Assembly (NCBI GenBank): GCA_973895155.1
Contig: OZ316891.1
Span: 22,711,884-22,775,883 of the forward strand
Direction: 5' to 3'
Source: Marsupella aquatica
Taxonomy: Eukaryota; Plantae; Marchantiophyta
Length of the DNA stretch: 64,000 nt
A program made the position numbers and the translations under genes. Positions 12,262 through 62,479 of the stretch are shown here, in pieces; position 1 is the first letter of the stretch, and every line of letters starts with the position of its first letter. The notes below the pieces were generated by a model. That model was not told where the DNA came from and did no database searches. It saw only the letters and a list, made by a program, of their open reading frames with translations.

Positions 12262-12272
12262 GCCTGCGCATG

Positions 12273-12416
12273 AGATAGACTCTACAATTTAGCAGACTGC
12301 ACAGAAAGTAATATATATTTAGCATTTAAGGTACAAAGGCATTTAGATAGACTCTACAATTTAGCAGACTGCACAGAAAGTAAAATATATTTAGCATTTA
12401 AGGTACAAAGGCATTT
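12273..12416. repeat. 72-bp tandem duplication just upstream of the PHD ORF
   Basis: AGATAGACTCTACAATTT...GGCATTT twice (12273-12344, 12345-12416), one mismatch. Confidence 0.95.
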
Positions 12417-29446: not shown

Positions 29447-29460
29447 ATCTTCCCCTTGAC
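29447..29460 (-). promoter_or_regulatory. Polypurine tract
   Basis: Minus strand GTCAAGGGGAAGAT directly before the 3' LTR. Confidence 0.85.
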
Positions 29461-29637
29461 TCTGATCTAGGGGAGAGTAATACTGCCAATGTATATGATC
29501 CCTCAGCGGGAAGTTCTGGACAGAAACCAAACCGGTTTCCCTCTCTAACTAGAGCAAACCAGAACTAAGCCGTAGCCTAATACATAGGAATGAGAAAGAG
29601 CATATATCAGTAATTACAATGAATGTTTAAGAAAACT

Positions 29638-32600: not shown

Positions 32601-33945
32601 CACCATCAATAACGCTCCATTGATGACCATTTGAATCCAACACACCGAGTGAAATCAGATTCTTACGCATGCCAGGTACATACCTGACTCCGGACACTGT
32701 GCGCACAGCGCCATCAAACATTTGAATCTTCACAGACCCAATTCCTTCAATTTGACAGGAGTGATCATTTCCCATCAGAACTGAACCGTTTGAAACAGAG
32801 TAAGAACTGAAAAACTCACGAATGTAACAAATATGAAAAGAGCAAGCACAATCAAGAATCCACACATCATCTGCTCTCCTAGATGACGTGCACAGGGCAT
32901 ACCCCCGACTTCATAAAACATACTCATCATTGAGTAAATCAGCTTCTCCATCAGCCCTAGCCACATTTGCCGATGAAGTTTCCGCTGCCTTTCCCTTACA
33001 GTCTCGCTTGAAGTGTCCAACTTGGTTGCACTTCCAACATGTCACCTGCCTCCTCTGAGGGGATTTACCCTTGGACTTAGATCTGGATTTAGATCTAAAC
33101 TGGGTTCTACGGTCCCCAGTTGGTCGCTGCATACTCCTCCCACGGTTAACATTGAGGGCAGCACCAGATGATGAAGGCTGTGACGTGATGTGCATCTTCT
33201 GCTGAAGATCATCACTAAGCAGAGAACTTACCACGTCATTGTATGAAATGGTATCCCTATCACGATGCAACAACACTCGTGATAGGGACTGGTAAGATGG
33301 AGGCAATGAACTAAGAAGCTGCAGAGCCTTCGTCTCATCATTCAAAGTCTCCCCAAGGTTTTCCAAGTCAACGACCATGTCGTTGAAAGCATCCACATGG
33401 TCTTGCAACTTCGTACCAGATTCCTTCATCCTGAAACTCATCAGTTTGTAAGAAGTGTAGAGCCGGTTCGACAACTCCTTGCGGTGATACTTGCTCTGCA
33501 ATTCCGCAAACAAGGACATGCAATCCTTATGTGCACCCAACTGCTTGATGATGGGAGGCATGAGATAGAGTGTAACACACCACACTCCTTGCTCCTGCAT
33601 GCGGTCCCATTGTTTCTCATCAACATCGTCTTCACGAGGGCTCAGCAGTTGGCCCATCCCTGACGCATAAAGCACTCCCTTCACTTGCTTCTCCCATAGC
33701 AAGTAGTCAGAGCGCCCATCATACTTTGTCACTTCATACTTGGGTCCCCCAAGCTTGAAAGTCCCCATCTTCTTCTTTACCGTGAGCTCCGGTAGTAGTA
33801 CTGCTTCCTCCATCACACGCCGCACCGGTGATGGTATCGGTGTCACGTGCTCTTCCTCCTGCTCCTCTCTCTGCCCCTGAAACCTCCGCGGTGATCCTCG
33901 TGCTTCAAGTTCCACATCTTCGAAAAACTCCTCCGAATCACTCAT
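29638..33945 (-). pseudogene. Copia gag-pol polyprotein, single frame with four in-frame stops
   Basis: Gag with CWKCNQVGHFKRDC; WILDCACSFH protease; WHSRLGH..CEHC and HSDVWGP / LRSDNGGEY integrase; YKARLVAKGF, LYGLKQSPR, LYVDDML RT; GYVDSD..TEAEY..DSQSA RNase H. Stops at 32911, 31978, 30739 and 29779. Confidence 0.95.
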
Positions 33946-35084
33946 ATGAGAAAGTCACAAAAAATGTTGTTTTTCACAACTTCTCAAAAAACTCAAAACT
34001 CAACACCGCCGCGTAGCCCACAAAGCTAGGAGTCCAATACTGAAAACCGAAATCAAAATCGAAATTTGACGGAAAAGTTATTCAAATTTCGGTCGAGGTG
34101 GGTAAAATCTTGGGAAACTCCCCCGTTTTGACCACCTCAGGGAATAACCGAAATACCAAGTACAACCCGTTGTCGGAATTGCGATGTGATTGGTGCGCTG
34201 CATTGCCAACTTCAATGGCTACGACCTCGCCGAAAAATAACCAAAAAAGTTACCGTTCGGCGGATGAAATCTTTGTCGGACGGTCAAAAAATAGCTCTCT
34301 GGTTTTTTGGAATATTCTATGACCCTTGTACAGGCCCTGTGGGAATTTTGGAAGAACAATCGAGGGGCTGACATGTGTCCTCGAACCCCCAAAACCCCCT
34401 ACCACCCTTCGTCATCGAAATCTGGTCGCGCGCGCAGAAAATACACACGGCAGAATGTACCCCTCGACACCAAACGCAAGATATCTCACTCGGGTTTTGA
34501 CAAAATCAAGATCCGATTTCAGATTTGGAAACTAGACTCCGAGGCGATGAAGATCGATATAAGAAGCACCCAAAACGAGGAAAGAACGAGGGAGAAAAAA
34601 ATTGGTAAAGATGACAGATTTCTCTCAATTGCCATAGCCAATTTCGAATCAGTTTTTCAAAGAGAAAAAAATGGTACCTTGTCAACAACGAATGTTGATC
34701 AATTGCACTTGGTGCCGTCACCAAGTCCAACAAGGTAATTGATTTTGCTTAGCCTTCCTCTTTGCATCAAAGAGCCAATCCCGGACTCAAAAACAATCGT
34801 CTTGCCTCAATCTCTCCGTTGAGTCAAAACACTTGACGCTTCTCCCTCCGAGTCGATTGCCAACTTTCTTCACAAAATCCAGAACAACGAAAACTTAGAT
34901 CTCTCTGCACCACGAGCTCCGTTCAACGATTTCTTCACACCGTTAGAAAGCTCTTGCCCTGATCTATCCGTTAAGCCCATAAACTCCAAGTTCCATGCGA
35001 TGGAACTCTGGAAAATCCACCAACACTCAACGCTGGAAAACCGTCATGAAATCCCGTCACGAACACACGTCACCTCCCAAGCAT

Positions 35085-35096
35085 GCTCTGATACCA
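35085..35096 (-). promoter_or_regulatory. Primer binding site (tRNA-iMet)
   Basis: Minus strand TGGTATCAGAGC, 2 nt after the 5' LTR. Confidence 0.95.
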
Positions 35097-35098
35097 AT

Positions 35099-35519
35099 TG
35101 TTGAGCATAGACGACGATCGCAACGGCAAGCCCATGAACCATCCAACGCACAATAGTCGACACAAGAGATACGTGGTTCACCTCCTTGAGGCTACGTCCA
35201 CGGGAACACACAAGAGAGCTTTACTGAACTCTAAGCCCGTCGGCTATACCGAGTCTCCACAGTGTAAGCTCTCCCTATCTCTCAAGTGGCTCCATAACAA
35301 TGAGCCTTGGTTCTACCTCTCCAAGCACACATGCCTCTTATGATATAGTGTGCAACTTAGTTGTACCTAACCACATAGTTGTACCTAATCACGTAGTTGT
35401 ACCTAACCACATAGTTGTACCTAATCACGTAGTTGTACCTAACCACGTAGTTGTACCAACCCACGTTGTTGTACCAACCACGTCATACCTAACCTAGACG
35501 TAAGAGTAAATACCCAACA
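35099..35519 (-). repeat. Copia 5' LTR (421 bp, 7 copies of the 18-bp unit)
   Basis: Matches the 3' LTR except two visible substitutions and one 18-bp unit. Confidence 0.95.
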
Positions 35520-38905: not shown

Positions 38906-39565
38906 TCAAATCCAAGAAATGTGGCTCCTGGTAGGAGTGCCTAGTGTAGGATCAATGTCATGGTTAGGACAGTAAAACATCCCCTTCTTGGGCTGCCCAT
39001 GCGCTAAGTGATCCCAAATTGTTTGATCATGGGCAAATCCCCTTTGCTGGATAAACTGCAGGCAGTCCTTGTGCCATGCCTTAGGACACCTCATGCACTG
39101 AACCAAAAAGCCATTAGCCCCATCATTGGGCCCCTGTCCACAAGTGTGACAAATATGGAGTCCACATGATGCTGTGCCAGGAACCAAACACTGCCGACAG
39201 TAAAACCGGGCACAGAGAGGGTCTGGACATTTTCTTACCTCTTCACCAATTTTTCCAGACACATGGCACTTAAAGCAAGAATGTTCCTCATTCTTGCAGT
39301 CAACACAAAGCCATTCTCCAACATGGCCATCAGCCAGGGATATAGTTGGGCATAGCCATTGCTGACCCAAAGGACAGGAAACATTCTTATGGAAATGTCG
39401 GTGGCAAGGCCCATCACAAACAATGAGATCCCCTCCCTCATCACAAATTGCACATACATGTGGGCTAAATTGGTTAATCTCAATGTCTGAATATAAGGAC
39501 AATTGAGGTGCTTGAGAGGATTCACCTCTGCAATGATTCATGGCCTTCTGCTTATTGCGAGCCAT
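38906..39565 (-). CDS. Stand-alone EDM2-type composite PHD-finger protein (E2 cargo)
   Basis: Intact ORF from ATG 39565 (MARNKQKA): CAICDEGGDLIVCDGPC.RHFH, WLCVDC, VRKCPD..C.RFYC..CL, C.LH.C..C, C.RCPKAWH..CL, FYC..H.IDP...TP.R.HISW; collinear with 11581-12261. Confidence 0.88.
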   Translation of the reverse strand: MARNKQKAMNHCRGESSQAPQLSLYSDIEINQFSPHVCAICDEGGDLIVCDGPCHRHFHKNVSCPLGQQWLCPTISLADGHVGEWLCVDCKNEEHSCFKCHVSGKIGEEVRKCPDPLCARFYCRQCLVPGTASCGLHICHTCGQGPNDGANGFLVQCMRCPKAWHKDCLQFIQQRGFAHDQTIWDHLAHGQPKKGMFYCPNHDIDPTLGTPTRSHISWI

Positions 39566-42108
39566 GGTCCTACACACTCAGACCCTACATCAGATTGTGA
39601 AACAAGAAGGAATAACAGGGTTCAGCATGACACAAAAGAATGAGGGTGCAACATAAAATATGACATGTAACCACAAGGGTGCAGCATAAACCAATGCTTT
39701 ATGGATGGCAAAGCACTAGGACTGAGCAGCGCAAATAACCTTGGCCTATGATTGGAAGCAATCACAAATATTGCAACCTATATGCCTTCGCCTGCTGTCC
39801 AGCAGTGCTCACTCACCCTGCCTTTTTAAAATCTGTAAGGGCAACACAGAACAAATAGCAATTGAGTTTCAGCAAAGCATTGGTTCTCAAGTTTTAAAAT
39901 GGACAGACTTGTTTCATTGCCTGCCTTGTGCGCAGCAGGCTAAGACCGATCAGGGCAAACAAAGCATTTGACACAACAATGTGCACAAAAAAGCACAGAG
40001 AGCAACAAAACTCCAGCAAACTGGGACTCAGGCAAGAGATACAAATTTCAGCAGCGAAATCAAATCAAGATTTGGACCTGTAAGTTCAACATGCAAACCA
40101 TTAAAGGTGACACACACTTCCCCAAAGGTCCCAAGCCTTCTACATCTTAAGGTGCTGGACACATCTGTTATAGAACCGTAAGTTATTGTACTCTCAACAA
40201 GCTTTCTCCTTGTGAGCTTTCTCATGTTTTAAGCTCCATTCGCTGCGCATAAGAAAGTCAGAAGTACAATGAACTTTCTAATGCAACAATGTGCTATTAA
40301 CAGGACGTGATGGAGAGAACTGTCTGACACAATGAGAGTGAATTGTTTAAGTACATTCATCATATATAATGTCAAATGGTACATAGCAATTAAGGCAGCG
40401 AATAGTTCATGTATTTTTAACTTGAAATTCGGATTCAAGTAGGGAGAGCTATAAATTTATATATTCAAGTAGTGAGAGCTACAAATTTAAATTTGCTGGG
40501 ACAGTTTTCCACTTCTGGATCCTGTTGCGCTTTATATACAGCAGCAACCTGAGCTCCATGAATTCATTTTTTATAGACCAGCTTTTGACCACGGCTACAA
40601 CTTCAAAACAATCACCCAATCAAATCATGACAAAACCCACCTGCAAGCTGAACACAGAGGACAGAGACAAGAAAATCTGTGAAAGAAAGTAGAGCGCAAC
40701 AGAGATCCAACATACGCAGATTTTCGTCATTCAGTGGGTCTTCACTAGGTCTGGGCTATGGTACTGTCAAGGGCAAGTCCCTCTCTGCAAGGATTAACAG
40801 CCGGTGATTCTATATACTTCAATGCCTCACTCAGCTTAGACCTCTTGTATATTAACACTGGGGTCTAAGGCACAGGTTGAAAGCATTGCCATCTGTTGCA
40901 TGAACTTCACCAAATGGGATGTGGACTGGAGAGATGGAAACGGAGAATGATACTTGGCCAGAGAGAATCAGTGAGACCTGAGTTACACATCTAGTATTGT
41001 TTGTTAGCTTAGTGCTCTATAGGTGCCTATGTGTACAAGGTTGAGAACCTCCACATATATGTAGATAGAGTCTAAGTGGTGGTAAAATTCTACTCGCGCT
41101 TGGCCCAAACTTCAAAACAGGTATACCGTGAGGTCAATGACAAAGCGAACCAACCGTTTGGAATACTATAAAATACCTGCGATAGTTTAAGCTCTTCTTG
41201 AGACACTAGGCTCGATCACCAAACTTCAATAACCGACTCTTATATCTTCATTCCCTACTAAACCCCAAACCAAGGGCTGCCTTCAACAATTCTCAAAATA
41301 TGGGGCCTCATCAAATATATGATTGTGCTCTACATACTGGCAGAGGATTTGATCACTACTACATATTGGCCCCTTTTGCGAAGCTTTTTTTTGACGTAGG
41401 GATGGTCTTGTGATGTCATCGACTTCAGATATTTTGTGATCAAACACGCATCACAATAAACCATGCTCAAAGGTTCGCAACATGGTGTTGCAAAGCTAAA
41501 TACCTCGCAATTTGTTTGAGATCGGATTGAATTTGCAACTCTTTCAGATACTATTCGTCTCGCAAAGTATTTGTGGATCCGCGACCATCGCGACTGCATT
41601 TGGATCTCTTTTGTTTCATAATTTAGCGATAATAATGTACTCAAATATATCTTGTGAACCTATTAGCTTCGCACAATATTGTGAAGTATAAATAGTCGCA
41701 AGTTACCGAATCCAGTTGATTCGCAAAATTGAGAACCCATTGGCATCACAATTACCGATGGTGTGTTATTCACAAAGTGTTCAAAAGTTGCTTCTTGACA
41801 AGCCTGAAAATGTTTTGCAAAGAGAGTTGTTTGAAAATTTTGTAGAATGGAAATGTTTGAGAGAGTTTCTTTACAAGATGGAGAATGCATGTGTTTAGGT
41901 TACAGCTAGGGTTTTCAAAAAGGTGGCATGCATGCGGATAGCTTTGGAAACGGCTAGGGTTGCATATATAACAGTGAGATGAAATTTCAAAGTCCAATTA
42001 AGTGTTTGTAAAACAAAAGAAGAAAAGTAATATGTTAATATAAATAAAACCATGATAGTTAGTTTAGGGTCAAATTTTGGGCCCACAACAAGTTTTACTA
42101 CTAGTGCA

Positions 42109-45100
42109 TCAAACCTGGTCCTCATCCTCGCCTCCATTTGATACAATAATAACGTCAGGTTTTTCCGAGATAATGGAACGGGACCGTGGCACATACGGTA
42201 TAACAACTGACCACTCTAGGTCTGGTGGGTACGGAATATAGAAACACTGCTCAAGGTGACTTGGGAATGTAAATGGTTCAGATGTTTGCCAATGAGATGG
42301 TTGAAAGCTAGTTGCTGATGTCTTCAGTCGAGTAAACCCACACTCATCAAGAAGTACCGTGCGATTATCACCAACCAGGTGAATTTTGAACCACTTACAC
42401 ATGAAGACATACTCTTCAAATTTGGAATTGGCATCATAGGATATGATCAAGATCTCCTCAATCTTCCCATAGTGAGGCACCACATCTCTGATCACATTAG
42501 TGTCATGACGGCTACTTTGTGAATCTTGCATGAACTGCCCTTGAACTCCACAATCAAAAGTTCTTCCCCTCTTCTCATCAAGGTCAGAAATCCTGAAATG
42601 CCTCCCTTGTGTCCACATTGCTGTTCTGGTTTGAACAAGTCTTAAAGGACCATGAACAATTGTTCAAACCTCAGGAGTCATATCTGGAAAATGTGATACA
42701 TTCTCACCTTGGGCCACCATAGCATCCAACTGAAGTACTTTCTCCTTCATATACTCAAGGAACTTTGGAAAGATCCTTGGGCGACGACTCTCCCTCTTTG
42801 CATCCTCATAAAACTCTCTCCAATCTTCCATCACATTGCTGTTACTCAACATGAAAGTACTAACCTGTATCAACTCCACTGCGGTTAGTAAGCGTGTTTT
42901 TTTTGCACCTGTTAAACGGTCCTCCTCCACTTCCCTCTCTTCCATCCAAGTGCGTGGACAACTAGGATGAATGGTAGCTAAGATGTTACTACAATAAAAC
43001 ATACTCTCAGCTGCCAAGTATCCAGTTGCCATGCTCCCCTCCACTCGTGCACGGTTCCGTACATAAGCCTTTAACACGGCCATATACCTTTCCAGCCAAT
43101 ACATCCACCTACAATGCACTGGACCAGCGATGGCAACCTCCCTCACAAGATGAACGAGAAGATGCACCTAACAATCAAAGAAGGAAGGAGGGAGGGCCTT
43201 CTCCAACTTGCATACCACCTCTGCTGCCAATACCTCCATCCGTGGTATCTCTTCTTCATATATTTCCTTTGAGCATATCCATCTCAACAAAGTGCCCAGT
43301 GACCAAAGGGCGTCTTGCACTTCTTCACTCCCCAAACCTATGATTGCCACAGGAAGTATATGTTGTAGTAAACGATGATAGTCATGTGTCTTGAGATACA
43401 TTGGCCATTTATGACTGCCCTCCATCCCAAAAGCCTTATGTAGATTGGCACCATAGCCTATAGGAAACCGCATCTGCCCTATGCATTGTCGAAACTCTCT
43501 TCTTTCACCAACACTCAAAACCCATGGAGCTGAAGGACGATGTTCCATCCCTGTGGATTCATCAATTGTTATCCATACATCTGGATGTCGTTCTAGATCC
43601 TGGCATGCCTCCAAAATTAATGTTCTTTTCCCCATAAAAGTGCTTGATCAAAGCCTTCCCAACATTTCCCTCTATATGCATGGGATCTAACAAGTGATGA
43701 ATCTTCAACTCAGGCCAATAGGGCAAAGTGGCCAGTATACCCCACCTTGTCAATCCACTACCATCAAATCCCATGGCATCTTCAGGGTCTGCCACCCTAT
43801 CAGCTATGGATTTCCAATACAAAAATGTTGTGCGGTCAGGTATCTCACGCTCATCACCATTGATCATGTCAAAGTCTGAAAACAAAAGGGGGTCAGACCT
43901 CATGTGATGCCCAAGTGGAAGAAACTTGGTATGACCAAGGTAGATTATCTTGTGCAGCCATTTTGAGTACTTGGCCATATCGTGAAGGCTTGGACCACAA
44001 GTGGAGCATGCCTTGTACCCTTGAGTTTGGAACCCAGAAACAAACCCAAACCCTGCTCACAAAATAACATTCTCAATTAGAGTCAAAGGAATTGAAAAGT
44101 TCATGTACATAGAATTAAAGAGGGACTTCCTTCCAAACAAACTTGATCTCCAATACATGAAAAAAATACAAATCCATACCACTCACCTGGATAGTCATGC
44201 ATGGTCCACATAATGATTTCCTTCAATTGGAAGACACGTGGTAACCCTCCTGTAGTTGTCCGACCATCATATGCCCATACACCCCCCCATAATTTATGGA
44301 GTTCCCCAACCAAGAGCGCCAAGTAGGTGTCCATGTTTTTTACCTTAGATGGACCTGGGATAATCAATGATAGCAATAAGAATCCCTTTTTCATGGACAA
44401 CCATGGGGGAAGGTTGTAATTCATAACAACCACCGGCCAAACCGAAGTAGGGCGCCCATTCCCTCCAAGGGAGTGTGGGCTTACCCCATCTGATGCCAAC
44501 CCCAACCTCACATGACGAGGGTCACGTGCAAACTCTGGCCATTGTGACTCCACATGCTTGTGAGCAGGGGAATCAACTGGCAACCGCATGACACCGGCCT
44601 CTGATCGATGTGTCTTATGCCATACCATCAATTCTCCCAAGTCAGAACATCGGTACATGTGCAACAATTGAGGAATAATAGGAAACCAACAAACAACTTT
44701 TCTAGCTAGGCACCTTTGAGGTCAACATGTTGGTTTCATATCGAGGCTCTTGACAAATTGGACACTGAGTTGCGTTGGCATTGGTCTCATGATAGAGAAT
44801 GCAGTCATTCACACAAGCATGAATGATATGGTATTCCATGCCAATAGATGATAGAACCCTCTTTGCCTCCTTCCAAGTTCCTGGCAACACATTTTCACTA
44901 GGTAACAAGAGATCATGGCAAATTGCAAACAAATCCGATAGTAGCGCATTGCTTGCCTTGTGTTTTGCCTGAAGATTCATCAATGCCAAGATGGCAGATA
45001 GTCTATTCAAACGAGCACCCCCATAAATAGGTGTTCTAGCATGTGCCTCAGCTTCTTCCCATTGTTTTTGTCCTTCAGGTGTACGTTGAGGCCTTGGATC

Positions 45101-45379
45101 ATGTGCAACATTTGGTGGAGGGTCTCCTTCATTGGGTGGGACACCTCCTTCACCACCAATGTCTACATCAAACCAATCTGTCATGAAGTCATCCATGGTT
45201 GACTCTTGGTCTTGCATGACCTCATAATCTGTCTGAGGTTCCCCTTCATCTAGACTGTCATTATCATTGTCACTTGATGAGGAATCTGCTGATGATGTTT
45301 CCCCGTCTTGTGGCAAGCCCATTTCTTGATATGTAGCTCTCAACCTCCTTGGCAACATATCTTGACTAGGCCGCACATT
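42109..45379 (-). pseudogene. E3 Tnp2-type transposase (exons 2 onward), with stops and frameshifts
   Basis: IHACVNDCILY..CPICQEPRY, RHVRLGLASDGVSP, NYNLPPW, HDYPG|intron, DPMHIEGN, LKTHDYH, PPSFFD, RWMYWLERYM, EPFTFPSHLEQCFY. Confidence 0.92.
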
Positions 45380-45529
45380 CTATAGACAATACAATAAAGC
45401 ATTCACAATGAAATTAATGCCAAATATAGTAGTGCTCGAAACATATTATTAACAATATAAAAAGAACATGTCATTACAAATTATACGTTCACATACGATG
45501 AACATATAATACATGTCCCTAAAGTAATC

Positions 45530-46345
45530 CTAATCCCATTCATAATGTGTAAACAACTCCTCTCCAGCCAGAATGGTCCTATTAGCTACAACTAGACAAT
45601 GGTCATGATGATATCTCTGCCCATAAGGGGCTGGAGGGGGACCATCAACAAAAACCCATTCACAGTTTTTCCTACGCTTAGGCCGGGTCCCCACAGTACT
45701 GTTGATGAAACCGGCAATATTCCCACTACGGATGGGATTACCATCAATTATACGCTGGTCACAATACTTTCTGGTGCAACTATCAAAAGTATCCATGTCC
45801 AATGCATAAGTCTTCCACTCAGGGTGTTGAACAAGGATCATGTTCCAATGTCTCCTCTTGTAAATGGGTCCACCATACGGGAACAACGTTGGTCCATCTG
45901 AAGAGCGCCCTTTTCCACCCATATCATCCACAATAATGTCCTGACAAGAGAAAATCCCATACCCATGCCTCTCCCCTAGGGTCGAACTCTTGACAACCCA
46001 ACGTCTTCCCCAAACTTCTATCTCCTCACCATAGGTTATATCACATGGCAAACCAAGGCACTCCGGATTCCAATCCTTTATGATAGGAACACACTTCCCT
46101 GTGAAGGTACAAGGGCCCCATCTACCATCAACCCTATAAGTGTACTGATCCACTTCCCCTCTAGGCTGTCTTTTTGACTTTTTTTTCCCTCTTGTAACAA
46201 TACTGTCACCCTGAATTGTCCCAACACTACCTTGCCCTGCTGCCACTAAATGAAAAGCTTGTGAAAGTGCCGAGCCTATAGCATCTAGAACTCCTTGTGA
46301 GGGAACATAGGGTGTTGGTGTAGTGGGTGTAGGCCTACTGGATAC
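45530..46345 (-). CDS. SET-domain (lysine methyltransferase-like) terminal exon inside the E3 transposase gene
   Basis: Open from acceptor TTCCTATAG|46345 to stop. VVKSS..GYGIFSCQDI, FPYGG, YALD, IDG...GNIAGFINS, NC, VVANRTILAGEELFTHY are SET signature motifs; no post-SET Cys cluster. Confidence 0.85.
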   Translation of the reverse strand, partial: VSSRPTPTTPTPYVPSQGVLDAIGSALSQAFHLVAAGQGSVGTIQGDSIVTRGKKKSKRQPRGEVDQYTYRVDGRWGPCTFTGKCVPIIKDWNPECLGLPCDITYGEEIEVWGRRWVVKSSTLGERHGYGIFSCQDIIVDDMGGKGRSSDGPTLFPYGGPIYKRRHWNMILVQHPEWKTYALDMDTFDSCTRKYCDQRIIDGNPIRSGNIAGFINSTVGTRPKRRKNCEWVFVDGPPPAPYGQRYHHDHCLVVANRTILAGEELFTHYEWD

Positions 46346-46457
46346 CTATAGGAAGAAATGGAACCAAGTGAGTGTGATGAACCTCCCAAATTTTATTTTA
46401 TGCTACCTAGCAAGATTTACAAAATAAAATGGAAATCACAGTAAGTTTACAACTCAC

Positions 46458-46691
46458 CATACGGGATGAAGAAGCTCCCGGTGTAAGACCTCGATGTTGG
46501 CCATATCGAGCAATGTGCTCCGCACATACATATGACTTTTGGACAACCATCCCCACACATTTTTTACAACCACAAAGTTGGCGTGGTGGACCACTAGGTC
46601 AACGTATGGTTGGTTCAGGCTGAGGAGGAGGACGACTTTCTTCATCGGAAGAGGAATCTGATGTGGTGGAAGTTGTAGAGGATGAAGACAT
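46458..46691 (-). pseudogene. E3 first coding exon: transposase-associated Zn motif
   Basis: 78 codons, MSSSS..DSSSDEE..R*PSGPPRQLCGCKKC...AEHIARYG..SSRM|GTGAGT; phase-0 donor; one TGA (probably CGA to TGA). Confidence 0.75.
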
Positions 46692-47122
46692 CTGACAAGT
46701 ATAGCAATTGGAAGGCGATTAGTAAAAACTTCACCAAAACCATTGATAATCCCTACCTAAACATATTAAAAATAATTGACAGAAAAATACCTTTATGAGA
46801 CCCGGGCTTAGCAATGCCTTGACGGATCTTGTGGCTCAAATTTCATGAACCAAATCTGGAAGGAGGGGAAAATCTGCCAATATACAATGAATTAAGCCAT
46901 GCCTTATGGTGAACCAGAAAAAAAGGATGATAGATTGTAACCCTCCATATTTACAGCAATGACTAGAAATGCATGAGAAAATGTTATACCTTTCAGATGC
47001 CCGGGCTCTCGCAAGGCATTATCATGCATTAGCCAAAACTTTAAAAAACATGGGGAAGTGCCCTACAACGCCAAAGAGTTTTCCTCTCCATGTTAATGAG
47101 ATAGACAAAGAAATATAAGTAG

Positions 47123-47960
47123 CCCAAACCCTACCCTAAACCCAAACCATGAAATGAAACCCTTCATTAAAACCTAACCCAAATCCCTCAATCACCCTAA
47201 ACCCTTACCCTTATCCTAACCAATACCCAAATCCCTCATTAAAAATTCAAACCTTTACCCTAAACCCAAACCCCTACCCTAAACCCAAACCATGAAATGA
47301 AACCCTTCATTAAAATCTAACCCAAATCCCTCAAGCACCCTAAACCCTTACCCTTATCCTAACCAATACCCAAATCCCTCATTAAAAATTTAAACCTTTA
47401 CCCTAAACCCAACCCAAATCCCCCAATTACATATAAAACCCTTACCCTATCTACACCTCACTTTACCTATATAGGCCAACTCCCACCTCTATAGTTATTC
47501 TAAACTTCACCCTAACCCCTAAATTGAGGCCCTTTTTTAAAACTTAAGCAAAAATTGTACCCCCTCAATTAGAACCAAATCCAACCCTATATCATGTTAC
47601 ACCCCAACCCAAACACTTACATTAGAAACCCAACCCCTTTAAAAAAACCACAATTAAACCCCCCAACTAAAAACCAAACCCAATCCCTTTAAAAAACAAC
47701 CACAATTCAACCCCTCAACTAAAACCAAACCCAACCCCTGTAATTACTCACAACCTAATGCAAACCTCTACCTTGAACCCTAAGCCAAACCCATTAATTT
47801 AAACCCAACCCTTTTATTCCAACCTAACCCAAGTTTTAACCCCCTTAATTAAACCAAATACTCCTAGATTAAAACCAAATATAAACCTAACCTTTAATTA
47901 AACCCAAACCTTTGTTAACTTATATTCTAGTTATCCTTACAACCCAAACATCCATTGACA
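47123..47960. repeat. Degenerate telomere-like (CCCTAAA/AAACCC) tract including a 143-bp tandem duplication
   Basis: Nearly G-free strand rich in CCCTAAACCC; CATGAAATGAAAC at 47148 and 47291. Confidence 0.85.
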
Positions 47961-48408
47961 CCCCTTCCATGTTAACTTATGGGCACTTAACATACCTTAA
48001 ATGTCGTTTGACAAACCTTAATAGCCGTTTGACACCCCAAAGTGTTTTCCAACCCTAAACCAATAAGACCTGCCTCGCAAATTATTTCACAAGTTAGAGA
48101 ATCTTTTTGCGAACCTACGACCTTCGCACTTACTTCGCAAAAACAAAGGCCGAGAATGATTTTTTGGGTCTTCTGCGGGTTGCGATGGCTTTGCAAAGGG
48201 AATAGATTCGGAAGTGCCTTGCAAGTTGCGAGACTATTTGCGAGGGCGCGGGCTTCGCAGTTTCCCATGCGTATGTCATCGCAAACCCGTTTTTGAACGG
48301 CGTAAACATTGGCGGGAGCTCGCATTCGGGCTCATTTCAGTTTTTGAGCGAGACGAGAAGGGCCGGGCACGCGCAACAGTACGAGGGAGACTGTGAGAAA
48401 GGGGAGCT

Positions 48409-50780
48409 ATGGCTACCGGTGAGGGGAGTGGAGGGCAAGGTGGTAGTGGTAGTGGTAGTGGCAATGGGGGAAATCCAGAGAAAGAGAAGAATGCCTGGGC
48501 AGACTTAGTGGCCCAACATCTCAGTGCTGCATAATTGGGAGAAGTGAATCTCAATTCTCCAGCAGGGCTTGCCTCTTTGAGTGCCATTCTTGGACAGGTT
48601 TTGCAAACTGGGATTGTAGCAGGACAAGCTACTAGAGAGGGGGAGGAGAGGGCCGCAGCTGAAGAGAAGGCTAGAGAGAAAAAAAGGAAGAGAGAGGAAA
48701 GAACTAAGTCGGGAGTTGCCTCTCCTCAAGCCCTAGAGAAGCAGAAGAGAAGAGAGGAGAGAGATTCAATTCAAAAATAGAGGGAGGAGCAACGTCAGAA
48801 AGAGGAAGCAAGAAAAAAAACTTCCATTCATTGCCTTGGAGACGAGTGGGACTCCAACTGAGCTAGCGTATGTAGGGGCTAAGAGCACAATCAAGCAGAT
48901 TATCACAAGCAATTTCTCACGAGGCATGCAGTGGGGGAAGATTGAGAAGGCAGAGCGAAAGAGGGTCATCAACCAAATCAAGGATGCATTTTGCAATGGG
49001 CCTAACATAGATGAGCAATGGTTGGCAGATAAGATTTCAAATTCTATGTCTCAAATGCGATACCATGACAGGATGAAGATTAGAGCCCACCTGAAAGACT
49101 TGAGATTATACAGGAACTTGCGCAGACCCCTCCACTTCACCGAGGACATCTGGAATTTGTTTTACAAGATTGAGGTGCAAATTAAGGCAGCTCACGAGTT
49201 GGAAGAGTGGAAGGGCAATCTAGATCGAGCCTTGAAAGCAAAGGAGGCCGGGAAGCTCCCCCCTGACCACGACCTGAAGCCACTTGAGCAGAAGGTAGCT
49301 GAGATGCAGACTCGGGGGAGTCACTTCCACGGAAGTGACACATCACGTGCGACGAAGTATAGGCCCATTTAAATGGGTGTGGCGGAAGACTTCCAAAGTT
49401 TGGTGGAAGAACACATAGGGCATGTTTTATTGATTGGTCGACTTTAAAGAACACATAGGCCTATTTAATTGCAAAAAATACTTTCTATAAAGTTTTTAGG
49501 GGTTTTTTAATAAAAAATGACAAAATTTTAAGAAAGAAAGGGCTTTGCAAAAAAATATTTTTCACTTTAAAGTTAGGGGGGTCAAACCCTAAAACGTCGC
49601 ACGCGATGTATGACCCTCCATATAGTGACCCCCCCGAGGATGCAGAAGGTGGCCGACCAGGAGGGAAAGCCACCCAAGCGTTTCACAAATGCAGCCAAAC
49701 GAGTGAAATCCACCCCCAATCCAGTCCACAAGTTGGGTCAAGGCGGGCTCCCCGGCCTCAAGTCACACTTTGTGAGTGCCTCTTGCTCCTCCCTAACCTC
49801 TCTATTCCTTTCAGAGTTGTGCAATGCAAGTGAATGACATCCCCGAAGGTTCTTGCTGTTGTGCATGCTTGCTTGGTTACTAGTTTAGGGCAACTCTGAC
49901 ACTTAGAATTTTTGGCAAATTTTTAAAAACTCTCGGGAACACAGTTTGCGAAGGTGTTGCGATGCGCATTTGTTCGCAAACCCCTCGCAAAGTCTATCAT
50001 GGACTTTTTCCATTTCAATTTTCCGATGCCTTTGCGAACAAATGCGCATCGCAAACTCCATCGCAACGCCTTCGCAAAAAAAGGTGGTTTGCAAGTTGCT
50101 ATGCTTATAGGTTCGCAAATTTGAATTTTAAAATTGTTTTGGGTCATGTTTAGTAGTTGAGGATTTAGGCGTCACTTGTGGCTATAGGGTATGCTTAAGG
50201 GCAAATTTAACCAATTTTAATTGGTTTTATGCATGGCAGTATCGGAGGTACAAAAGGAAGATATCAAAAAAGCATATTGAGGTGGCGATAGAGCATGGAC
50301 GAAAGTACCTCTTTGCGATGGTAGATGCCGAGTTGGCTACTGTAAGTGTCTAAGTGTGAACCATATGATTAGCATGCAAAGATTGTGAGTGAATCTTTAT
50401 GTCTTGCGGAAACTAGTGATATGTAATGGATGCAGGATTCGGATGAGCCTGAGGGGTCGGGTGCTGATGTGACCAGTAGTGATGACGATGAGGGGGCTAC
50501 TCCTGGTACTAGTGGTGCTCGGGGGGGGAGTAGTCGTGAGGTAGGTTCTTCCCATCGTGGTAGTGGTGGTAGTCGTGTGTCATCAGCACACGTTGATGAC
50601 CAGGGGGAGGAGGAGGACCCTGAGGATGAGGAGCAGGAGGGGCAGGAGGAGCCAGAGGAGCAGCAGGAGCAGGAGCGCCGACGGCCATCACGCACCCGTC
50701 ACCAACAGGATCCCCGGAAGGATAAGGGCAAGAAGCCAGCCAAGAAGCCAACCAAGAGGAGCCGCAAGAGTCCATTCTAG
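48409..50780 (+). pseudogene. E3 TnpA/Ptta-like gene, divergent from the transposase
   Basis: W.KI...RKRVINQIK..F......WL..KI...M...R....P..F..DIW and STPNPVHKLGQGG resemble the E1 TnpA core; stops at 48532 and 48778, a poly-A frameshift, a MITE insertion, introns and an acidic last exon (50430-50780). Confidence 0.65.
49311..49638. mobile_element. 328-bp MITE with 8-bp TSD
   Basis: TIR CTCGGGGGAGTCACT vs CTCGGGGGGGTCACT (14/15). TSD GATGCAGA at 49303-49310 and 49639-49646. Removal restores the frame AEMQ-KVADQ. Confidence 0.92.
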
Positions 50781-51934
50781 TTATTTTGTAGAGATACATG
50801 CATGAGAGTGACTTGTCATGCCGGAGCTTAGGGTAGGAAGAGGCAGCATAGGTTTAGAAGGGCGAACCTAGCATCAGATATTTCCCCCCTCTTGTCCATG
50901 TATAGGGTTCTTTGAAGCCCTATCATTTTGTTCATGCTTTTCCATTTTATATAACAACAATTTTGCCTTCCACATTGGGTCCCAAGGAAAACCCCTCGCA
51001 AATAATGTATTGAATCCTGTGTGATCATAATTTTGCGAACCCTTTAAGAACTCATTCCCATCGCACAATATAAACCCCAAGGCGTCGCACTTTTTGAGTC
51101 AATTAACTTCAGAACTTCAGATCCAAATATGTCAGGTTTTTGTAATACTTCTAGGATTGCACTTTCCTAATCGCAACCGTTCACAAACTTCTGAAATCAC
51201 CGGTATCGCTCTTTGTCATACAATCCCCATCAAAATAATTGAACCAGTATCTATCGCAAATATGATGCGATGGTAAATCCGTCTCAAATATCAACGCCTG
51301 CGCGGGACGTGTGCGTGTATGTTTGTGAACTTTATGCGACGTATAATGGATCGCAGGAGTATTGAATCTTGCGAACCTCTCAGCTTCTCAGTTTGCCATG
51401 ATGTTGCGATGCCGTTGCGATGGTCCGCGTGCGAAGTTATTAGGTTCGCAAAGTGCGAAGGTGGTGCGATGAGTGTATGTTCGCAATGGCCAGAATTATG
51501 AAAATCAGGGCTTGTTAGTTGCGATGAGATTGTCTTCGCAAAACCGGCCGATAGTGTTGTAGTGGATCAATTGATGTGCATTGGGTTAACCAGGGAGACG
51601 AGTGGCAGTTTGAACTGCTAATTCGGTCAGAGTTGTGTGAATGATTTATTTTGAGAGGCTACATTCCGCTGCATAACGAAAATAGTCATGGCCTTGAAAG
51701 ATTGAGCAAGTCTAGGCGCAGACTTGACAGAGGCTATAGGATGAACAACCTAAAACTGTACAGGAACTAGGGGGATCTGTTTAGGCAATGCTAGAACCCA
51801 ACAAACAAGACAAGGACCAACGTGAACAATCGAACACTTGATAGGGACTGTCGGAAATCGACAGACAGACAGGAAAAATGGCGTTTCCTAATTTACTTTG
51901 GCAACTGAACCCTTATTTGCAAAACTCAAGCAGT

Positions 51935-52340
51935 CAGAGAGAGAGAGAGAGAGAGAGAGGGAAGCGCACAAACCTAACTCCAGCTCTTGACCAACCAACG
52001 GCTCCTCACCGACCACAGCTCCTGCAACTCCTCCCTGATGTAACCTCTTGCAGCTCCCGCAGCTCCTCCCGCAGCTCCAGATGTAACCTCCCGCAGCTCC
52101 CGTAGCTCCTGCCTGCTATAACCTCCCGCAGCTCCTGCCAATGTGACCTCCCACAGCTCCACCAATGTGACCCCCTGCCTGTTGTGACCTCCCGCAGCTC
52201 CAATACTATCGGGAGCTTATCCCCGGTCACAGCTCGCACCTCCTTCCCAATGTATCCTCCCACTCCTTGCAGCTTATCACCCGCAGGTTATCACCGGTCA
52301 CAGCTCATCGCCCTTTGCTGAGGTAACCTCCTGCAGCTCC
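51935..52340. repeat. (GA)n microsatellite followed by degenerate GCAGCTCC/TGTAACCTCC repeats
   Basis: Direct inspection; explains the repetitive spurious ORFs here. Confidence 0.8.
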
Positions 52341-55319: not shown

Positions 55320-58300
55320 TCAACAGTCATCGCCCCTTCTAGGAGTTCCCCCTTACAATTCCTTTGCAATTTAATAGAAAATACCCTAGTGGAGGGGTTG
55401 CGAGCTCTATGTGGGGCCACATGGCACTCTAGGGCCCACCTTCAGCCCTTAGCCCCAAATTGGTCATTTATGCTTGTCTTCAATGACTGCACTAGGGACA
55501 CCTCAAATGATCACAAATCCAGTCATTTGACTTATGTGACAGTCCATATGACATATGTAGTGACCCTATTTGTGGTCATTGGAACTTATGACACAACTTT
55601 GTGCAAAAATGACCCAATGTTCAAGGTCCTAGTACCTCCCGAGAGAGCCCACTCTAGGTTCATTGCAAAAATAGAATATTCCTATACCTTTAACCAGCGC
55701 ACACACCATAGAGGGAAGCACCACTACCACGCCCATTCCATTGGTGTTGCACTACCTCTTGGAGGAACAAACAAATGGCTCCATTTGCCTTTGGAACATA
55801 ACATATTCATCCATGATGGTGCTTTTGGAAAATCACTCCAATGTTGTATGACTTGGGAGTGATTTCCCCAAGGTTGCATCATCCCTTAAGTAATTGCGAA
55901 AACATGGCTCCAAAGTGCTCATGGTGCAACTAGTGGTTGGAGAATAGTAAGTATAGTGTCCCGCACCTATTGGAAAGGTTGCCAGCTCCATGTAGGGCCC
56001 CATGGCAGTCTAGGGCCCACTTCCAGCCCTTATCCCCAAACTGGTCATTTAGGTTGGTCCCTAATGACACCATGAGGGACCTCTGTAATGACCAGGTATG
56101 CAATCATTTGGTCCAAATGACTGCCAAAATGACCCATATGGTAGTCATTGGCTTTAATGACACACCATTCCTCCAAAATGACCCAGTGAAGATTACACTA
56201 CCTATCGGAGTGGCCCCTAGCAAATCCTTAGCAATTTAATAGAATATTCCTCACCCAAATGCCAGCACAAACATGACATAGTTAAATCGAAGGACAACAA
56301 CCTTCCATTGGTTTTGCAAGAGAACTCTTAGAGAACAAGAAATCAACTATTATTTAACTTTGAATGTGATGGTATACATCCATGGTGACACTTTTGGAAA
56401 ATCGCTCCAAAGCCGTATGCCTTGGGAGTAATTTCCCCAAGGTTCCATCATGCCTTAACAAAATGCAAAAACATGGCTCCAAAGTGTTCATGGTGCAACT
56501 AGTGGTTGGAGAATAGTGGGTATAGTACCCCGCACCTAGTGGAGAGGTTGCCACCTTCATGTAGGGCCACATGGCACACTAGGGCCACCTTAAGCTCCTA
56601 GACTCAAAATGGTCATTTCTGATGGTCCATAATGACACCATGAGGGACCTCTATAATGACCCCATATGCAATCATTGTGCACAAATGACTTTCAAAATGA
56701 CCCTTATTGCAGTCTTTGGCATTATGACACACTATTCCTCCAAAATGACCCAATGAAGATTACAACACCTACTCACAATGCCCCAACACTATTCATATGC
56801 AAAATGGAGTATTCCCCATCCAAACACCGGCACAAACATGACACAATTACATCACAAGATGACAACCTTCCATTGGTGTTGCGCTACTTCTTGGAGAGAC
56901 AAAAAATGACTTAGATACGGTGGTATGCATCCATGGTGACACTTTTGGCAAATCACTCCAAAGTAGTATGACTTGGGAGTGATTTCCCCACTGAAGGTGC
57001 ATCATGCCTTAAGTAAACGCAAAAACATGTGTCCAAAGTGTTCATGGCACAACTAGTGGTTGGACAATGATGAGTATAGTGTCCCGCACCTAGTGGAGGG
57101 GGTTCTCAGCTCTATGTGGGGCCCCATGGCACTCTAGGGCCCACCTCCAGCCCCTAACCCCAAACTGGTCATTTGTGCTTCTGCTTAATGATTGCACAAA
57201 GGACCCCTCAAATGACCACAAATCCAGTCATTTGACTTATGTGATAGCCCAATGACAGATTTAATGACCCTACTTGTAGTCATTGGTATTTATGACACCA
57301 ATTTTTTTAGAAATGACTCAATGAAGATTACACTACCTTCTTGAGTGCCCCGTCACTATTCATTTGCAAAATAGAATATTCCCCATCCAAACACCGGCAC
57401 AAACATGACACAATTACATGGAAGGACAACAGCCTTGCACTACTTCTTGCAGAGACAAAAAAAAATGGCTTCATTTCCTTTTAGATAGGACGGTATGCAT
57501 CAATGGTGACACTTTTGGCAAATCACTCCAAAGTGGTACGACTTGGGAGTGATTTCCCCAAAGGTGCATCATGCCTTAAGTAAACGCAAAAATATGTGTC
57601 CAAAATGTTTATGTCGCAACTAGTGGTTGGACAATGATGAGTATAGTGTCCCGCACCCAGTGAAGGGGTTCTCACCTCTATGTGGGGCCCCATGGCACTC
57701 TAGGGCCCACCTCAAGCCCCTAGCCCCAAACTGGTCATTTGTGCTTTTCCTTAATGATTGCATGAGGGACCCCTCAAATGACCACAAATCCAGTCATTAG
57801 ACTGATATGACTCTCTATATGACAGTTTTAATGACCCTACTTTTAGTCATTGGTATTAATGATGGGCCATTGCTCACATATGATCCAATAAAGGCCCTAG
57901 TACCTCCAAAGAGACCCAGCTTTAGATTCCTTACAAGATTGGAATATTCCTCTTCCCTAATCCCGCACCCACACCATACTGAGAAGCACAACTCCCCTAC
58001 CCATTCAATTGGTGCAGCACTACCTCTTGGAGAACCAAAAACAACTTTTTTTTGCCTTTGGATGTGATGGTATGCATGCATGGTGACACTTTTGGCAAAT
58101 CACTCCAAAGTGGTATGACTTGGGAGTGATTTCCCCAAAGGTGCATCATGCCTTAAGTAAACGCAAAAATATGTGTCCAAAATGTTTATGTCGCAACTAG
58201 TGGTTGGACAATGATGAGTATAGTGTCCTGCACCCAGTGAAGGGGTTCTCACCTCTATGTGGGGCCCCATGGCACTCTAGGGCCCACCTCAAGCCCCTAG

Positions 58301-60480
58301 CCCCAAACTGGTCATTTGTGCTTTTCCTTAATGATTGCATGAGGGACCCCTCAAATGACCACAAATCCAGTCATTAGACTGATATGACTCTCTATATGAC
58401 AATTTTAATGACCCTACTTTTAGTCATTGGTATTAATGATGGGCCATTGCTCACATATGACCCAATAAAGGCCCTAGTACCTTCAAAGAGAGCCAGCTTT
58501 AGATTCCTTGCAAGATTGGAATATTCCTCTTCCCTAATCCCGCACCCACACCATACTGAGAAGCACAACTCCCCTGCCCATTCAATTGGTGCAGCACTAC
58601 CTCTTGGAGAACCAAAAAACAACTTTTATTTGCCTTTGGATGTGATGGTATGCATGCATGATGACACTTTTGGCAAATCACTCCAAAGTCGTACGACTTG
58701 GGAGTGATTTCCCCAAAGGTGCATCCCCTGGGCCCTCACTCTTACTATATTAAGTGAACCCCCCTGAGAACACACACCCCCCGTGTACCCCTTCTTAATA
58801 TTTTTGTTCACAAAAAAAATCCCATTGTTAATGTAAAAATATTAACTTTTCCTATTAAATTTTATCCTTTTGTAAATTATAATAGAGTTTTTCAAGGAAT
58901 TGAAAACATCCTTGAATTTTTAGAATTACAAATATCATATTGAAATAGATAAAACTTTATCTTTCATAGGGGACTTGTATGTTATGCTCGATCTTCAAGG
59001 TACATATTTTATATATAAATAAACAAAATTAGTACGAGAGAAAATTATAGTTCTTCCTATAGTTTACACACAGCCATGCACTCTTGTCTTAGTGTTCGCA
59101 AAAGTGCCTCTGAACTTCTAGTTTCATAAGTACTATATATGTATAATCCAGGAATAATACTCCAAAGTCTGAACCAACTATAACAAACATTGTTGAGCGC
59201 CTGAGACCCCTCCCTCAACACACAAACACATTTGGCCTCATACCTGGTTGTTTGATTCAAGGGAATTCAAAAGTAATCTTGTCCTTCCATGTGGGATTGA
59301 TCCGTGGATCCCCATCAATCCTAGTTTCCCAACCAAGTTGGGCCCAAAGATTATGGCCCAAAGATTATGGCCCAAAGATTATGGCCCAACATTTACTCAA
59401 CTCCCCAGTTAACTCCTAAACATGCGGGTAAACATGTCTACCCAAACCCATTTGTTTCACCATAAGGGGACCAACGAAACCAAACTTGCCTTAAGACGAT
59501 AAATAATTAAATGTTTGATTTACTATATGGACACGTATGCAAATGAAGTGATGACATGTGTGCCAACCATATAGTGACGCTTGTACTTGGCATTTTGGGT
59601 ACCCTTGCATAAGATTTATGTGACATGTATTTGATAAGAGTCTTATTACTAATATTATGGCGAATGTATATAGAGGGATGTTGCCTACTTTAAAAACTAT
59701 TATAAAAATTAGTTTGCATTACATTAAAAATACCCTTGTGTTGTTCGCACGTCCTCCCTGTATTCGTAACACTAAGGACCCAGGGGGTGCATCATGCCTT
59801 AAGTAAACGCAAAAACATGTGTCCAAAGTGTTTATGTCGCAACTAGTGGTTGGACAATGATGAGTATAGTGTCCCACACCCAGTGGAGGGGTTCTCACCT
59901 CTATGTGGGGCCCCATGGCACTCTAGGGCCCACCTCCAGCCCCTAGCCCCAAACTGGTCAATCATTTGTGCTTGTGTTTAATGATTGCATGAGGGACCAC
60001 ACAAATGACCACAAGTCCAGTCACTTGACTTATATCACAGTCCATATGACAAATTTAATGACCCTACTTGTAGTCATTGGTATTTGTGATGCAAATGTTT
60101 TTAGAAATGACCTAATAAAGATTACACTAGCTCCTTGAATGCCCCATCACTATTTATTTGCAAATTAAAATATTCCCCATCCAAACATCGGCACAAACAT
60201 GACACAATTACAACAAAGGATGACAACCTTCCATTGGTATTGCCCTACTTCTTGGAGAGACAAAAATGTTTCATTTGCCTTTGGAACGATAGTATGCGCG
60301 CATCTATATATGGTGACACTTCTGGAAAATCACTCCAAAGGTGTATGACTTGGGAGTGATTTCCCCAAAGCTAGGTGCATCATGCCTAAAGTAAATGCAA
60401 GACATGTGTTCAAATTGCTAATGCTGCAACCAATGGGAGGACAATGATGACTATTGTGTCCCGCACTTAGTGGAAGGGTT
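55320..60480. repeat. ~550-580-bp satellite array (about 7 copies) in the E2 right arm
   Basis: Anchor ACTTGGGAGTGATTTCCCC near 55851, 56420, 56971, 57541, 58118, 58696 and 60348; units rich in AATGAC/GTCATT. Confidence 0.92.
58726..59785. mobile_element. 1060-bp non-autonomous TIR element with 8-bp TSD
   Basis: TIR CCCTGGGCCCT vs CCCTGGGTCCT; TSD GGTGCATC at 58718-58725 and 59786-59793; interrupts a satellite unit; internal (GGCCCAAAGATTAT)x3 at ~59341-59388. Confidence 0.9.
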
Positions 60481-61352: not shown

Positions 61353-62479
61353 GATGTGTTGGTGGGATGTATAGTGCTCTACCCCATGAGATTTATTCTT
61401 GATTTTTGGGAGGAATCAGTGTCATATTGACCTGATTGGCAGTCAGGAGATGCTCGATTAAGCAAATTGCCAGTGAGATTTAGTGGACCTGTGGGAGGCC
61501 CTAAGTCCACACCATTATCTTTGGTAGCATTTAGTGGTGTAATTATTGGACCTCATGATTTGATTGAGGGTAATGCGCATGCACCAGATCTTCCACCATT
61601 GGAGGAGTCTCATGAGGAGCACATCATGCAGGGATTACCTGTTGGCAGTGTTGTGCCGCCAGTGTGGATGCACAGGCCTTGCCATAGGCAGCAGCACGAT
61701 TGGTACATGATGCATGGCATCATGCTTTTACACCTCAGTCAGGAGCAGAGCAGTCTCTTGCAGATGGACTGGTGACTCTTTCACCATTGGATACCACTCC
61801 TATTGCTTGGCAGTATCCATCAGAGGGTATTTGTTTGTTGGATCTTTTTGGTGGGATGAGCACTATATTGGCTATTGTTCTTCAGGCAAGAATTCCTGTA
61901 CGTCGTTATTTGTATGTGGAGACAGATGAGATAGCACAGAGGGTCTCATTGCAACATGTGGCTATGTTGGTGGATAGATATCCACAGTTGTTGCCAGTGG
62001 ATGCTGTTCGTGGTTATCAGCATGCACTACCTGCTGATATTTCATTGTTGGGGGTGGATCATCTGCATCGTGTTGGCCCCATTGATTTGGTGTTTGCTGG
62101 TTAGCCATGTCAGGGCCAATCTAGAGCTGGCGTTAGATATGGACTTCATGATCCACGCTCTACATTGTTTTGGGAGATGTTACGGGTGCTGCGTCATCTT
62201 CAGCTACATCAGACAGTCTCTAGCATACATTTTGGAGAATGTGCCATTGTTAGGTGATGATCGTAGTTGGATTGTTGCCAGTGTTCACAAGGTGGCATCT
62301 TGGATTGGACTTGCTATGTTATTGGATGTTGCACGTGTGGGTTCTCGTGCACATCGTCCACGCTTGTGGTGGACTAATTTGATCTCATGTGAGGTGCTGA
62401 AGCGCGCATTTGACAGCATTCCACGCTCACCAGCCTTAGTGGTGGATGATATTTTGGATCCAGGGCGTCGTGCACAGGG
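61353..62479 (+). pseudogene. Retroelement pol continuation: protease C-terminus plus DNMT3-like C5-cytosine methyltransferase domain
   Basis: DVLVG protease end; then motif I LLDLFGG, II YVETD, III ADI, IV DLVFAG*PCQ (TGG to TAG), GL.D.RS.LF, VI ILENV, VIII AHRPRLWWTNL; frameshifts; cut off at 62479. Confidence 0.88.

Follow-up and report, generated by a model that had tools for sequence, protein, structure and literature searches.

SETMAR (Metnase) unites a SET domain and a mariner transposase in one transcription unit and is a domesticated primate fusion. In maize En/Spm and Arabidopsis ATENSPM3/7, alternative splicing is described as yielding two proteins, TnpD and TnpA (PMC13547354; bioRxiv 10.64898/2026.08.24.746577). 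CACTA/EnSpm transposases are described as combining DDE residues with the motifs C(2)C and H(3-4)H (PMC12730594). SET domains are also reported as transposon cargo. In the Plavaka elements of red algae, which belong to the EnSpm superfamily, PAG2 is described as a separate gene with a SET domain fused to an N6-adenine methylase (bioRxiv 10.1101/2025.02.11.637652). HarbingerS and MuDR elements of Phytophthora are listed as carrying SET genes (Kojima and Jurka, 2014, cited in PMC12730594), and proto-Helentron-Pi is described as carrying one (PMC4067079). For the SET genes of oomycete and red-algal transposons, the available parts of these sources report no functional tests. Finally, VANC of the VANDAL elements is presented as a sequence-specific regulator with an anti-silencing function (cited in PMC12730594; bioRxiv 10.64898/2026.08.24.746577, 10.1101/2025.02.11.637652).

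Here we describe an element, E3, found in the window, that is, the whole stretch of 64,000 nucleotides of Marsupella aquatica DNA that was analysed. In this element, a SET exon stands between a first coding exon and the exons of the transposase. The element as a whole is laid out as follows.

41354-51564, minus strand: CACTA/EnSpm element E3, 10,211 bp, with inverted CACTAC.ACA ends and identical 3-bp flanks
51546-51564, minus strand: 5' terminal inverted repeat; target duplication GAT (on the plus strand) at 51565-51567
48500-50800, plus strand: second gene of E3, divergent, in pieces 48737-49372 and 50427-50780
44187-45379, minus strand: transposase exon 2, N-terminal region and Transposase_21, with a frameshift near 44702 in the window copy
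42109-44052, minus strand: transposase exon 3, remaining Transposase_21, DUF4218 and DUF4216, broken near 43612, 43170 and 42665 in the window copy
41354-41371, plus strand: 3' terminal inverted repeat; target duplication GAT (on the plus strand) at 41351-41353

E3 is a CACTA/EnSpm transposon by its ends, its 3-bp duplication and its Transposase_21 gene. CACTA termini are found at 51564 and 41354, with the target-site duplication GAT on both sides, and the 5' end CACTACAACA is identical in five related loci. Pfam recognizes Transposase_21 (E 8.8e-40) and DUF4218 (E 3.7e-23) in the transposase, as well as DUF4216 under its cut-off (E 3e-6). A pattern search finds the motifs LASDG, HDYP, CSTC, HRLLQH/HLLVH and WLER, and both C(2)C and H(3-4)H are present. 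Among these motifs are the presumed D/D/E positions. The window copy is broken, with a stop in the first coding exon plus frameshifts and stops in the transposase.

The second gene has the same position and orientation in ten related loci and is a possible candidate for a TnpA-like accessory gene. It matches no Pfam family and has no BLAST match with the Transposase_24 ORF of E1, one of the other two CACTA elements of the window; Rfam gave 0 matches over 41000-52000. TTGCGA words cluster at 41000-41999 and 48000-51999 (34 of the 54 in the window), and they likewise cluster near both element ends and the second gene in two related loci (L003, L027). These clusters are likely to be subterminal binding sites. 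A telomere-like AAACCC-rich tract (47120-47960; 19 in 1.8 kb vs. 1.0 per kb overall) contains tandem units of 143 bp and 51 bp and is milder in relatives.

The part of E3 that concerns us most lies between the second gene and the transposase.

46990-47062, minus strand: predicted untranslated exon A, inferred, with a donor at 46989
46791-46873, minus strand: predicted untranslated exon B, 83 nt, with conserved splice sites and a donor at 46790
46458-46691, minus strand: first coding exon, 234 nt, phase 0, Ser/acidic leader and Cys/His domain
46346-46457, minus strand: short intron, 112 nt, GTGAGT...TATAG
45530-46345, minus strand: SET exon, with a linker (about residues 1-70), a conserved pre-SET part (71-112), the SET core (113-271) and its own stop
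45380-45529, minus strand: A/T-rich spacer, 150 nt, predicted SET 3' UTR/polyadenylation zone and 3' end of the long intron

An earlier note on this DNA had proposed that the exon at 46691-46458 has a phase-0 donor in frame with two acceptors, of which the first opens a stop-free SET exon. Recomputed coordinates and phases bear this out. The exon ends with ATG|GTGAGT. The acceptor CTATAG| at 46345 opens a stop-free frame of 271 codons closed by a stop at 45532-45530, and its translation matches the Pfam SET family PF00856 with 27.4 bits (cut-off 22.4). The acceptor GTCTATAG|AAT GTG at 45379 opens the transposase frame after a long intron of 1078 nt. Both are in frame with the donor. The spacer between the SET stop and the second acceptor is 73% A+T, with TGTA/TGTAA words, and comparison of the window with related loci revealed no conserved donor in it.

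These related loci are 41 metagenome loci with the order second gene, exon 1, SET, transposase: on the upstream side, exon 1 is seen in 17 of them and the second gene in 10, and on the downstream side the transposase is seen in 27. Seven show a break within the SET exon, and the remainder do not extend far enough to decide. Retrieval was by SET, so that relatives lacking it were out of reach. Most belong to one young family, which matches Sphagnum proteins, so that, with L011 and the window, they amount to about three independent subfamilies. The donor GT is kept in 17/17 loci, the SET acceptor AG in 14/17, the SET stop in 27/27 and the transposase acceptor AG in 25/27. Introns are only about 55% alike, and the recurrence of the splice sites and of the stop in place is therefore more than chance. 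L011, of the third subfamily, also ends in TAG|AAT, just past the transposase acceptor. Spacer length ranges from 139 to 153 nt across loci, with 215 in L011.

Substitution rates were compared between the window and the loci, with dS about 1 and thus near saturation. Median dN/dS is 0.174/1.14 for the SET core (37 loci), about 0.15, and 0.120/0.95 for the Transposase_21 part (16 loci); exon 1 gives 0.229/0.85 and the SET linker 0.66/1.12. By these ratios, the SET core is under purifying selection, like the transposase. Inside the family, SET has a pN/pS of 0.77 and Transposase_21 one of 0.80, while 21/41 SET exons and 18/27 transposase N-parts contain a stop. These values and the common stops indicate that most copies are decaying, as expected for dead copies.

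The SET exon could be seen as a decaying chance capture or as a separate insertion, given the stops in about half of the loci and the presence in the spacer, at 45434, of a word resembling a terminal inverted repeat. However, the constraint is seen between subfamilies, transposase parts decay equally often, the layout extends to 36-44% identity, and none of the 41 SET-fetched loci has an intact SET exon with unrelated flanks. The word itself (CACTACTATATTTGG, 45415-45434) was rejected as the end of a nested element, its flanks being mismatched and the word being absent from the peat-type spacer. The earlier note had pointed to an independent insertion with its own target-site duplication, or to a SET exon missing or decayed in relatives, as outcomes that would speak against it. 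Neither a terminal repeat pair nor a duplication flanking the SET exon was found, and in relatives the exon is maintained by purifying selection. Chance capture is thus largely refuted, and its probability is negligible. That the SET gene is element-borne and selected is almost certain.

The first coding exon carries the motif CxCxxC-x13-H-x4-G (LCGCKKC...H..YG). It was said in the earlier note to be shared with the transposase starts of E1 and E2 and to be missing from the transposase exon of E3. Both points hold: hhalign aligns the exon with the N-termini of E1, E2 and three other CACTA transposases (93.5%, E 2.3e-7), and neither Pfam nor the translation reveals a Cys/His domain in the E3 transposase exon. 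The match to Pfam Transpos_assoc (PF13963) is weak (E 0.004, 17.7 bits vs. a cut-off of 27.7, model 36-64/74). On the basis of the profile comparison, the exon is homologous to the usual N-terminus of CACTA transposases. From the motif alone, we infer that the domain binds zinc. An Atlas search using it gave no usable match, and a prediction of its self-association with zinc, made without an alignment, gave no answer either way (score 0.00, mark 0.32).

In the window copy, this exon has a TGA at codon 31 (46601-46599), a stop already reported in the earlier note. The stop is private to this copy. In 4/4 DNA sequencing runs, A>G is found at 46601 in all or nearly all of the depth, and a 631-nt contig that runs from exon 1 through the short intron into SET shows 8 differences from the window. 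Both facts indicate a young family in the organisms from which those runs come.

What was called exon 1 is the first coding exon, and at least two untranslated exons are predicted ahead of it. The block of exon A and its GT donor are kept in L011, L014, L027, L030 and L037. Exon B measures 83 nt in the window, L014 and L011, with 57/87 and 62/85 aligned columns identical and no reading frame open in both members of any pair. Exons A and B both end in a similar conserved motif, GCA/CYTG..AGCCC (46791-47062), kept in three subfamilies, a possible protein-binding site or RNA signal.

Which junctions are used can be approached through gene models and sequence comparison. In gene models of 343-351 residues, which are themselves predictions, the Cys/His exon runs into SET exactly where the splice sites place the junction, as it does in P0001 (Calypogeia) and P0003 (Sphagnum, a cluster of 360 sequences). 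Splicing of exon 1 to the SET exon is therefore, as far as such models can tell, very probable.

For the transposase, the comparison concerns the residues preceding a methionine, Met8, which none of the 26 loci counted lacks. Conservation sets in at acceptor 45379 rather than at Met8 (identical 5/7 before Met, 14/16 from Met, then 2/7), and the codons before Met8 show an AGT/TCT serine switch and synonymous changes (P 0.048 for random changes, by simulation). At the nucleotide level, however, exon B (66-73% identical) is conserved to the same degree as the 21 nt before Met8 (15/21). The transposase part of P0123, a Riccia model, opens with NVFPD and has no Met for 79 residues. No database model shows exon 1 joined to the transposase; among 1295 long candidates, 5 matched, of which the two close ones (P0042/P0043, metagenome gene calls) start at Met8. 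The five sequencing runs, none of them recorded as RNA, behave as DNA, and their contigs keep the introns; among the 8 joints listed at 45150-46900, there is neither a splice joint nor one that skips the SET exon.

These data bear on another reading, in which the Cys/His exon belongs to the SET gene alone and the transposase mRNA is spliced from donor 46790 to 45379, starts at Met8 and is devoid of the domain. The untranslated exons are conserved and have good donors, Met8 is invariant and is the start of P0042 and P0043, and the matching phase may be no more than an inheritance from ancestors. Nevertheless, the residues before Met8 look protein-conserved (at P 0.048 only), P0123 has no early Met, and CACTA transposases usually begin with this domain (P0044-P0046, E1, E2). 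We consider this reading improbable. Splicing of exon 1 to the transposase exon is probable from the comparison, if less so than splicing to SET. The alternatives put forward in the earlier note, a zinc-SET or a zinc-transposase product, are thus supported for the former by the Calypogeia and Sphagnum models and for the latter by comparison, with the donor at 46790 as a competitor.

A single Cys/His-SET-transposase fusion, in the manner of SETMAR, could also be made through a donor within the SET exon or by read-through, and four gene models (P0027, P0101, P0123, P0136) do merge SET and transposase parts. However, these models differ in where they cut, and most of them lose a portion of the SET core; the SET stop is kept in 27/27 loci, and spacer length varies. 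The search for a strong phase-0 donor common to the loci inside the SET exon found none; together with the spacer result, this speaks against a fusion protein. Moreover, no homologue of greater length occurs among 2270 candidates of 476-2000 aa, which is weak evidence. A fusion is very unlikely.

The layout is not confined to the window. A word search found 41 related proteins among 663 candidates, the named ones coming from Calypogeia and Sphagnum. The nearest named protein is from Calypogeia fissa, with 66% identity over the SET exon and 79% over the core. When 1.84 billion representative sequences were searched with a profile, 129 matched; sources were retrieved for 20 of these, and those with a named source comprise seven from Riccia sorocarpa, one from Calypogeia and one from Ginkgo (E 2.4e-4). 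Members that are 36-44% alike in the core either retain the N-terminal Cys/His motif or have transposase sequence beside SET in the model. A within-family FastTree (83/99 rows, 165 columns, midpoint root, 16 rows with less than 70% coverage left out) shows that the layout extends as far as this identity range; some circularity attaches to its Cys/His labels, several of those proteins having been part of the profile. Distant members of the SET clade are P0169 (Gb_21150 of the gymnosperm Ginkgo), P0107, P0116, P0117, P0121 and P0162-P0164. Among viral contigs, 16 pattern matches were obtained, none related. In a viral fold library, SETs matched with E values of 3e-7 at best, which does not improve on cellular SETs, and Atlas feature matches to giant-virus and haptophyte SETs are leads only. 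Many models annotated as 'SET domain-containing' in Sphagnum, Calypogeia and Riccia are likely to be transposon parts.

The product of the SET exon has, in the AF2 model, a SET fold. With a 99-row alignment, the model reaches pLDDT 91 and pTM 0.86 (pLDDT 42 with 16 rows). The fold matches 6uh5_M (Z 12.0, rmsd 2.6, 124 aligned) as well as SET7/9 and SET8 (Z 11.6). H3K4, K27, K36, H4K20 and PR-type SETs all score alike (Z 10-12, 14-25% identity), so that no substrate can be named. Beside SET, no flanking Pfam domain of the named subfamilies (SUV39, EZH2, SET1/MLL, SET2/NSD, SET8, ATXR5) was found. A phmmer search of the PDB with the single SET exon returned nothing real, whereas the 99-row profile did match. 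Among solved structures, its best sequence match is LegAS4/RomA (PDB 5czy, 8swi; E 3e-8 vs. 1e-3 or weaker for host SETs). Identity is only about 22-25%, and structurally LegAS4 is tied with host SETs; it also has ankyrin repeats and a C-terminal segment, both of which E3 SET is devoid of. No conclusion on origin or on a common substrate is drawn from this match.

The following residues are kept family-wide: the GxG motif (G128 84/91, G130 88/92), the cofactor Asn215 (88/98), E263 of ELxxxY (81/84), the catalytic Tyr268 (75/81), Tyr180 (88/99) and Tyr/Phe157 (96/96). As stated in the earlier note, the NHS motif reads NST, and serine occupies the position of the histidine in 92/98 family rows. 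In the window, the protein ends 3 residues past Tyr268 (2-5 residues in 44/75 family rows); it therefore has no post-SET segment and no partner for Tyr231 of LegAS4.

LegAS4/RomA is described as an active H3K14 methyltransferase, with an inactive allele that has six changed residues (bioRxiv 10.64898/2026.05.29.728679). In a profile alignment with hand-counted numbering, Tyr268, Asn215, Tyr180 and Tyr/Phe157 correspond to its Tyr220, Asn181, Tyr159 and Tyr135, and four of the six residues changed in the inactive allele have Tyr/Asn counterparts in the SET family. The NHS equivalent of LegAS4 reads INFS, with Phe in place of His. Like E3 SET, this active enzyme does without the NHS histidine, so that NST is not disabling by itself.

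One may nevertheless suppose that both isoforms are made and that SET is weak or dead, acting by binding (as a histone-tail reader, a SAM sink or a decoy for silencing factors), or that it methylates a non-histone target, for example the transposase. The missing post-SET segment, the widespread NST serine and the fact that no subfamily can be assigned are in line with this possibility. Yet the catalytic Tyr, the cofactor Asn and GxG are kept across members only 30-40% alike, and LegAS4 is active without the histidine. We regard this alternative as unlikely. From its conserved residues, the putative lysine methyltransferase is rather likely to be active. The full combination, two isoforms from a shared exon 1 plus an active SET enzyme, we favor by a hair's breadth.

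The following mechanism can be proposed. A single transcript would begin near the divergent second gene and run through the untranslated exons to the Cys/His exon. If the near acceptor is used (112-nt intron) and the 3' end is formed in the 150-nt spacer, the default product would result, a predicted Cys/His-SET protein of 349 residues. Use of the far acceptor (1078-nt intron) would skip the SET exon and give a predicted Cys/His-transposase. Splicing to SET by default would ration the transposase, as in En/Spm. By analogy with TnpA and VANC, the SET protein might help the element, most likely through histone marking that counters silencing. That it places a histone mark on the chromatin of its own element is conceivable on this analogy, even if we would sooner expect otherwise; that the shared Cys/His domain would deliver it there, as the earlier note suggested, is more doubtful, with the conserved pairing as its sole support. 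Taken jointly, an old CACTA lineage with a SET exon, common to mosses and liverworts, in which an exon switch puts the N-terminal zinc domain of the transposase on a minimal SET enzyme, one in a class by itself, so that the element writes its own anti-silencing mark and rations its transposase, is a speculative reading to which we give little credence.

The remainder of the window has its own features. E1 and E2 carry chromatin-type cargo upstream of their transposases (10116-12288 and 38906-39577, both minus strand), where both have ORFs with an NSD-like PHD finger and the first also has a twin-BRCT ORF (Pfam); chromatin cargo seems to recur in these CACTA lineages. A Copia-type retrotransposon with 99% identical direct repeats (29004-35394) is inserted in the second CACTA transposase. 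At 55385-60478 lies a satellite-like array whose unit recurs about every 570-580 bp. Two overlapping ORFs at 61688-62501 (plus strand), without Pfam match, contain the motifs DLFGG, DLVFAG and ILENV, which we take to recall a DNA cytosine methyltransferase.

Compared with the known systems, E3 resembles En/Spm as a CACTA element in which one unit is predicted to yield a transposase and an accessory protein. Accessory proteins of En/Spm are tied to anti-silencing in the sources cited, and the SET protein is likened to them on that point. In contrast, the second product of En/Spm is the helix-turn-helix DNA-binding protein TnpA, whereas that of E3 would be a SET protein sharing the N-terminal domain of the transposase, and E3 has a second element gene that is separate and divergent. 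As in Plavaka PAG2, whose SET is compared by description, the domain is carried by an element of the EnSpm superfamily, but in E3 it sits inside the transposase gene with no N6-adenine methylase domain (Pfam). HarbingerS, MuDR and proto-Helentron-Pi, also compared by description, likewise have a SET gene on a transposon; however, they belong to other superfamilies and hosts, and their descriptions, as far as available, present separate genes and no shared exon. With VANC as described, E3 shares a likely purpose, an element protein altering the chromatin of its own element, but VANC is not a SET enzyme. Unlike SETMAR, E3 is a mobile family with a stop between SET and transposase.

In the PMC and bioRxiv texts searched, no land-plant CACTA element with a SET exon or a shared exon was found, and the available parts of bioRxiv 2024.09.22.614159, bioRxiv 2022.10.24.513474 and PMC4158355 contain nothing on SET cargo. 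A shared exon, likely spliced to either partner, means that the element could make its own chromatin-marking enzyme. The close copies in sequenced mosses and liverworts make it testable whether a transposon writes histone marks against silencing, and which mark. A short SET without the histidine or a post-SET segment would represent an uncharacterised class of enzymes. SET cargo and two-product splicing are each known, and their combination was not found in the literature searched; if true, a coding exon common to a transposase and a chromatin enzyme would be a new coupling of mobility to chromatin control.
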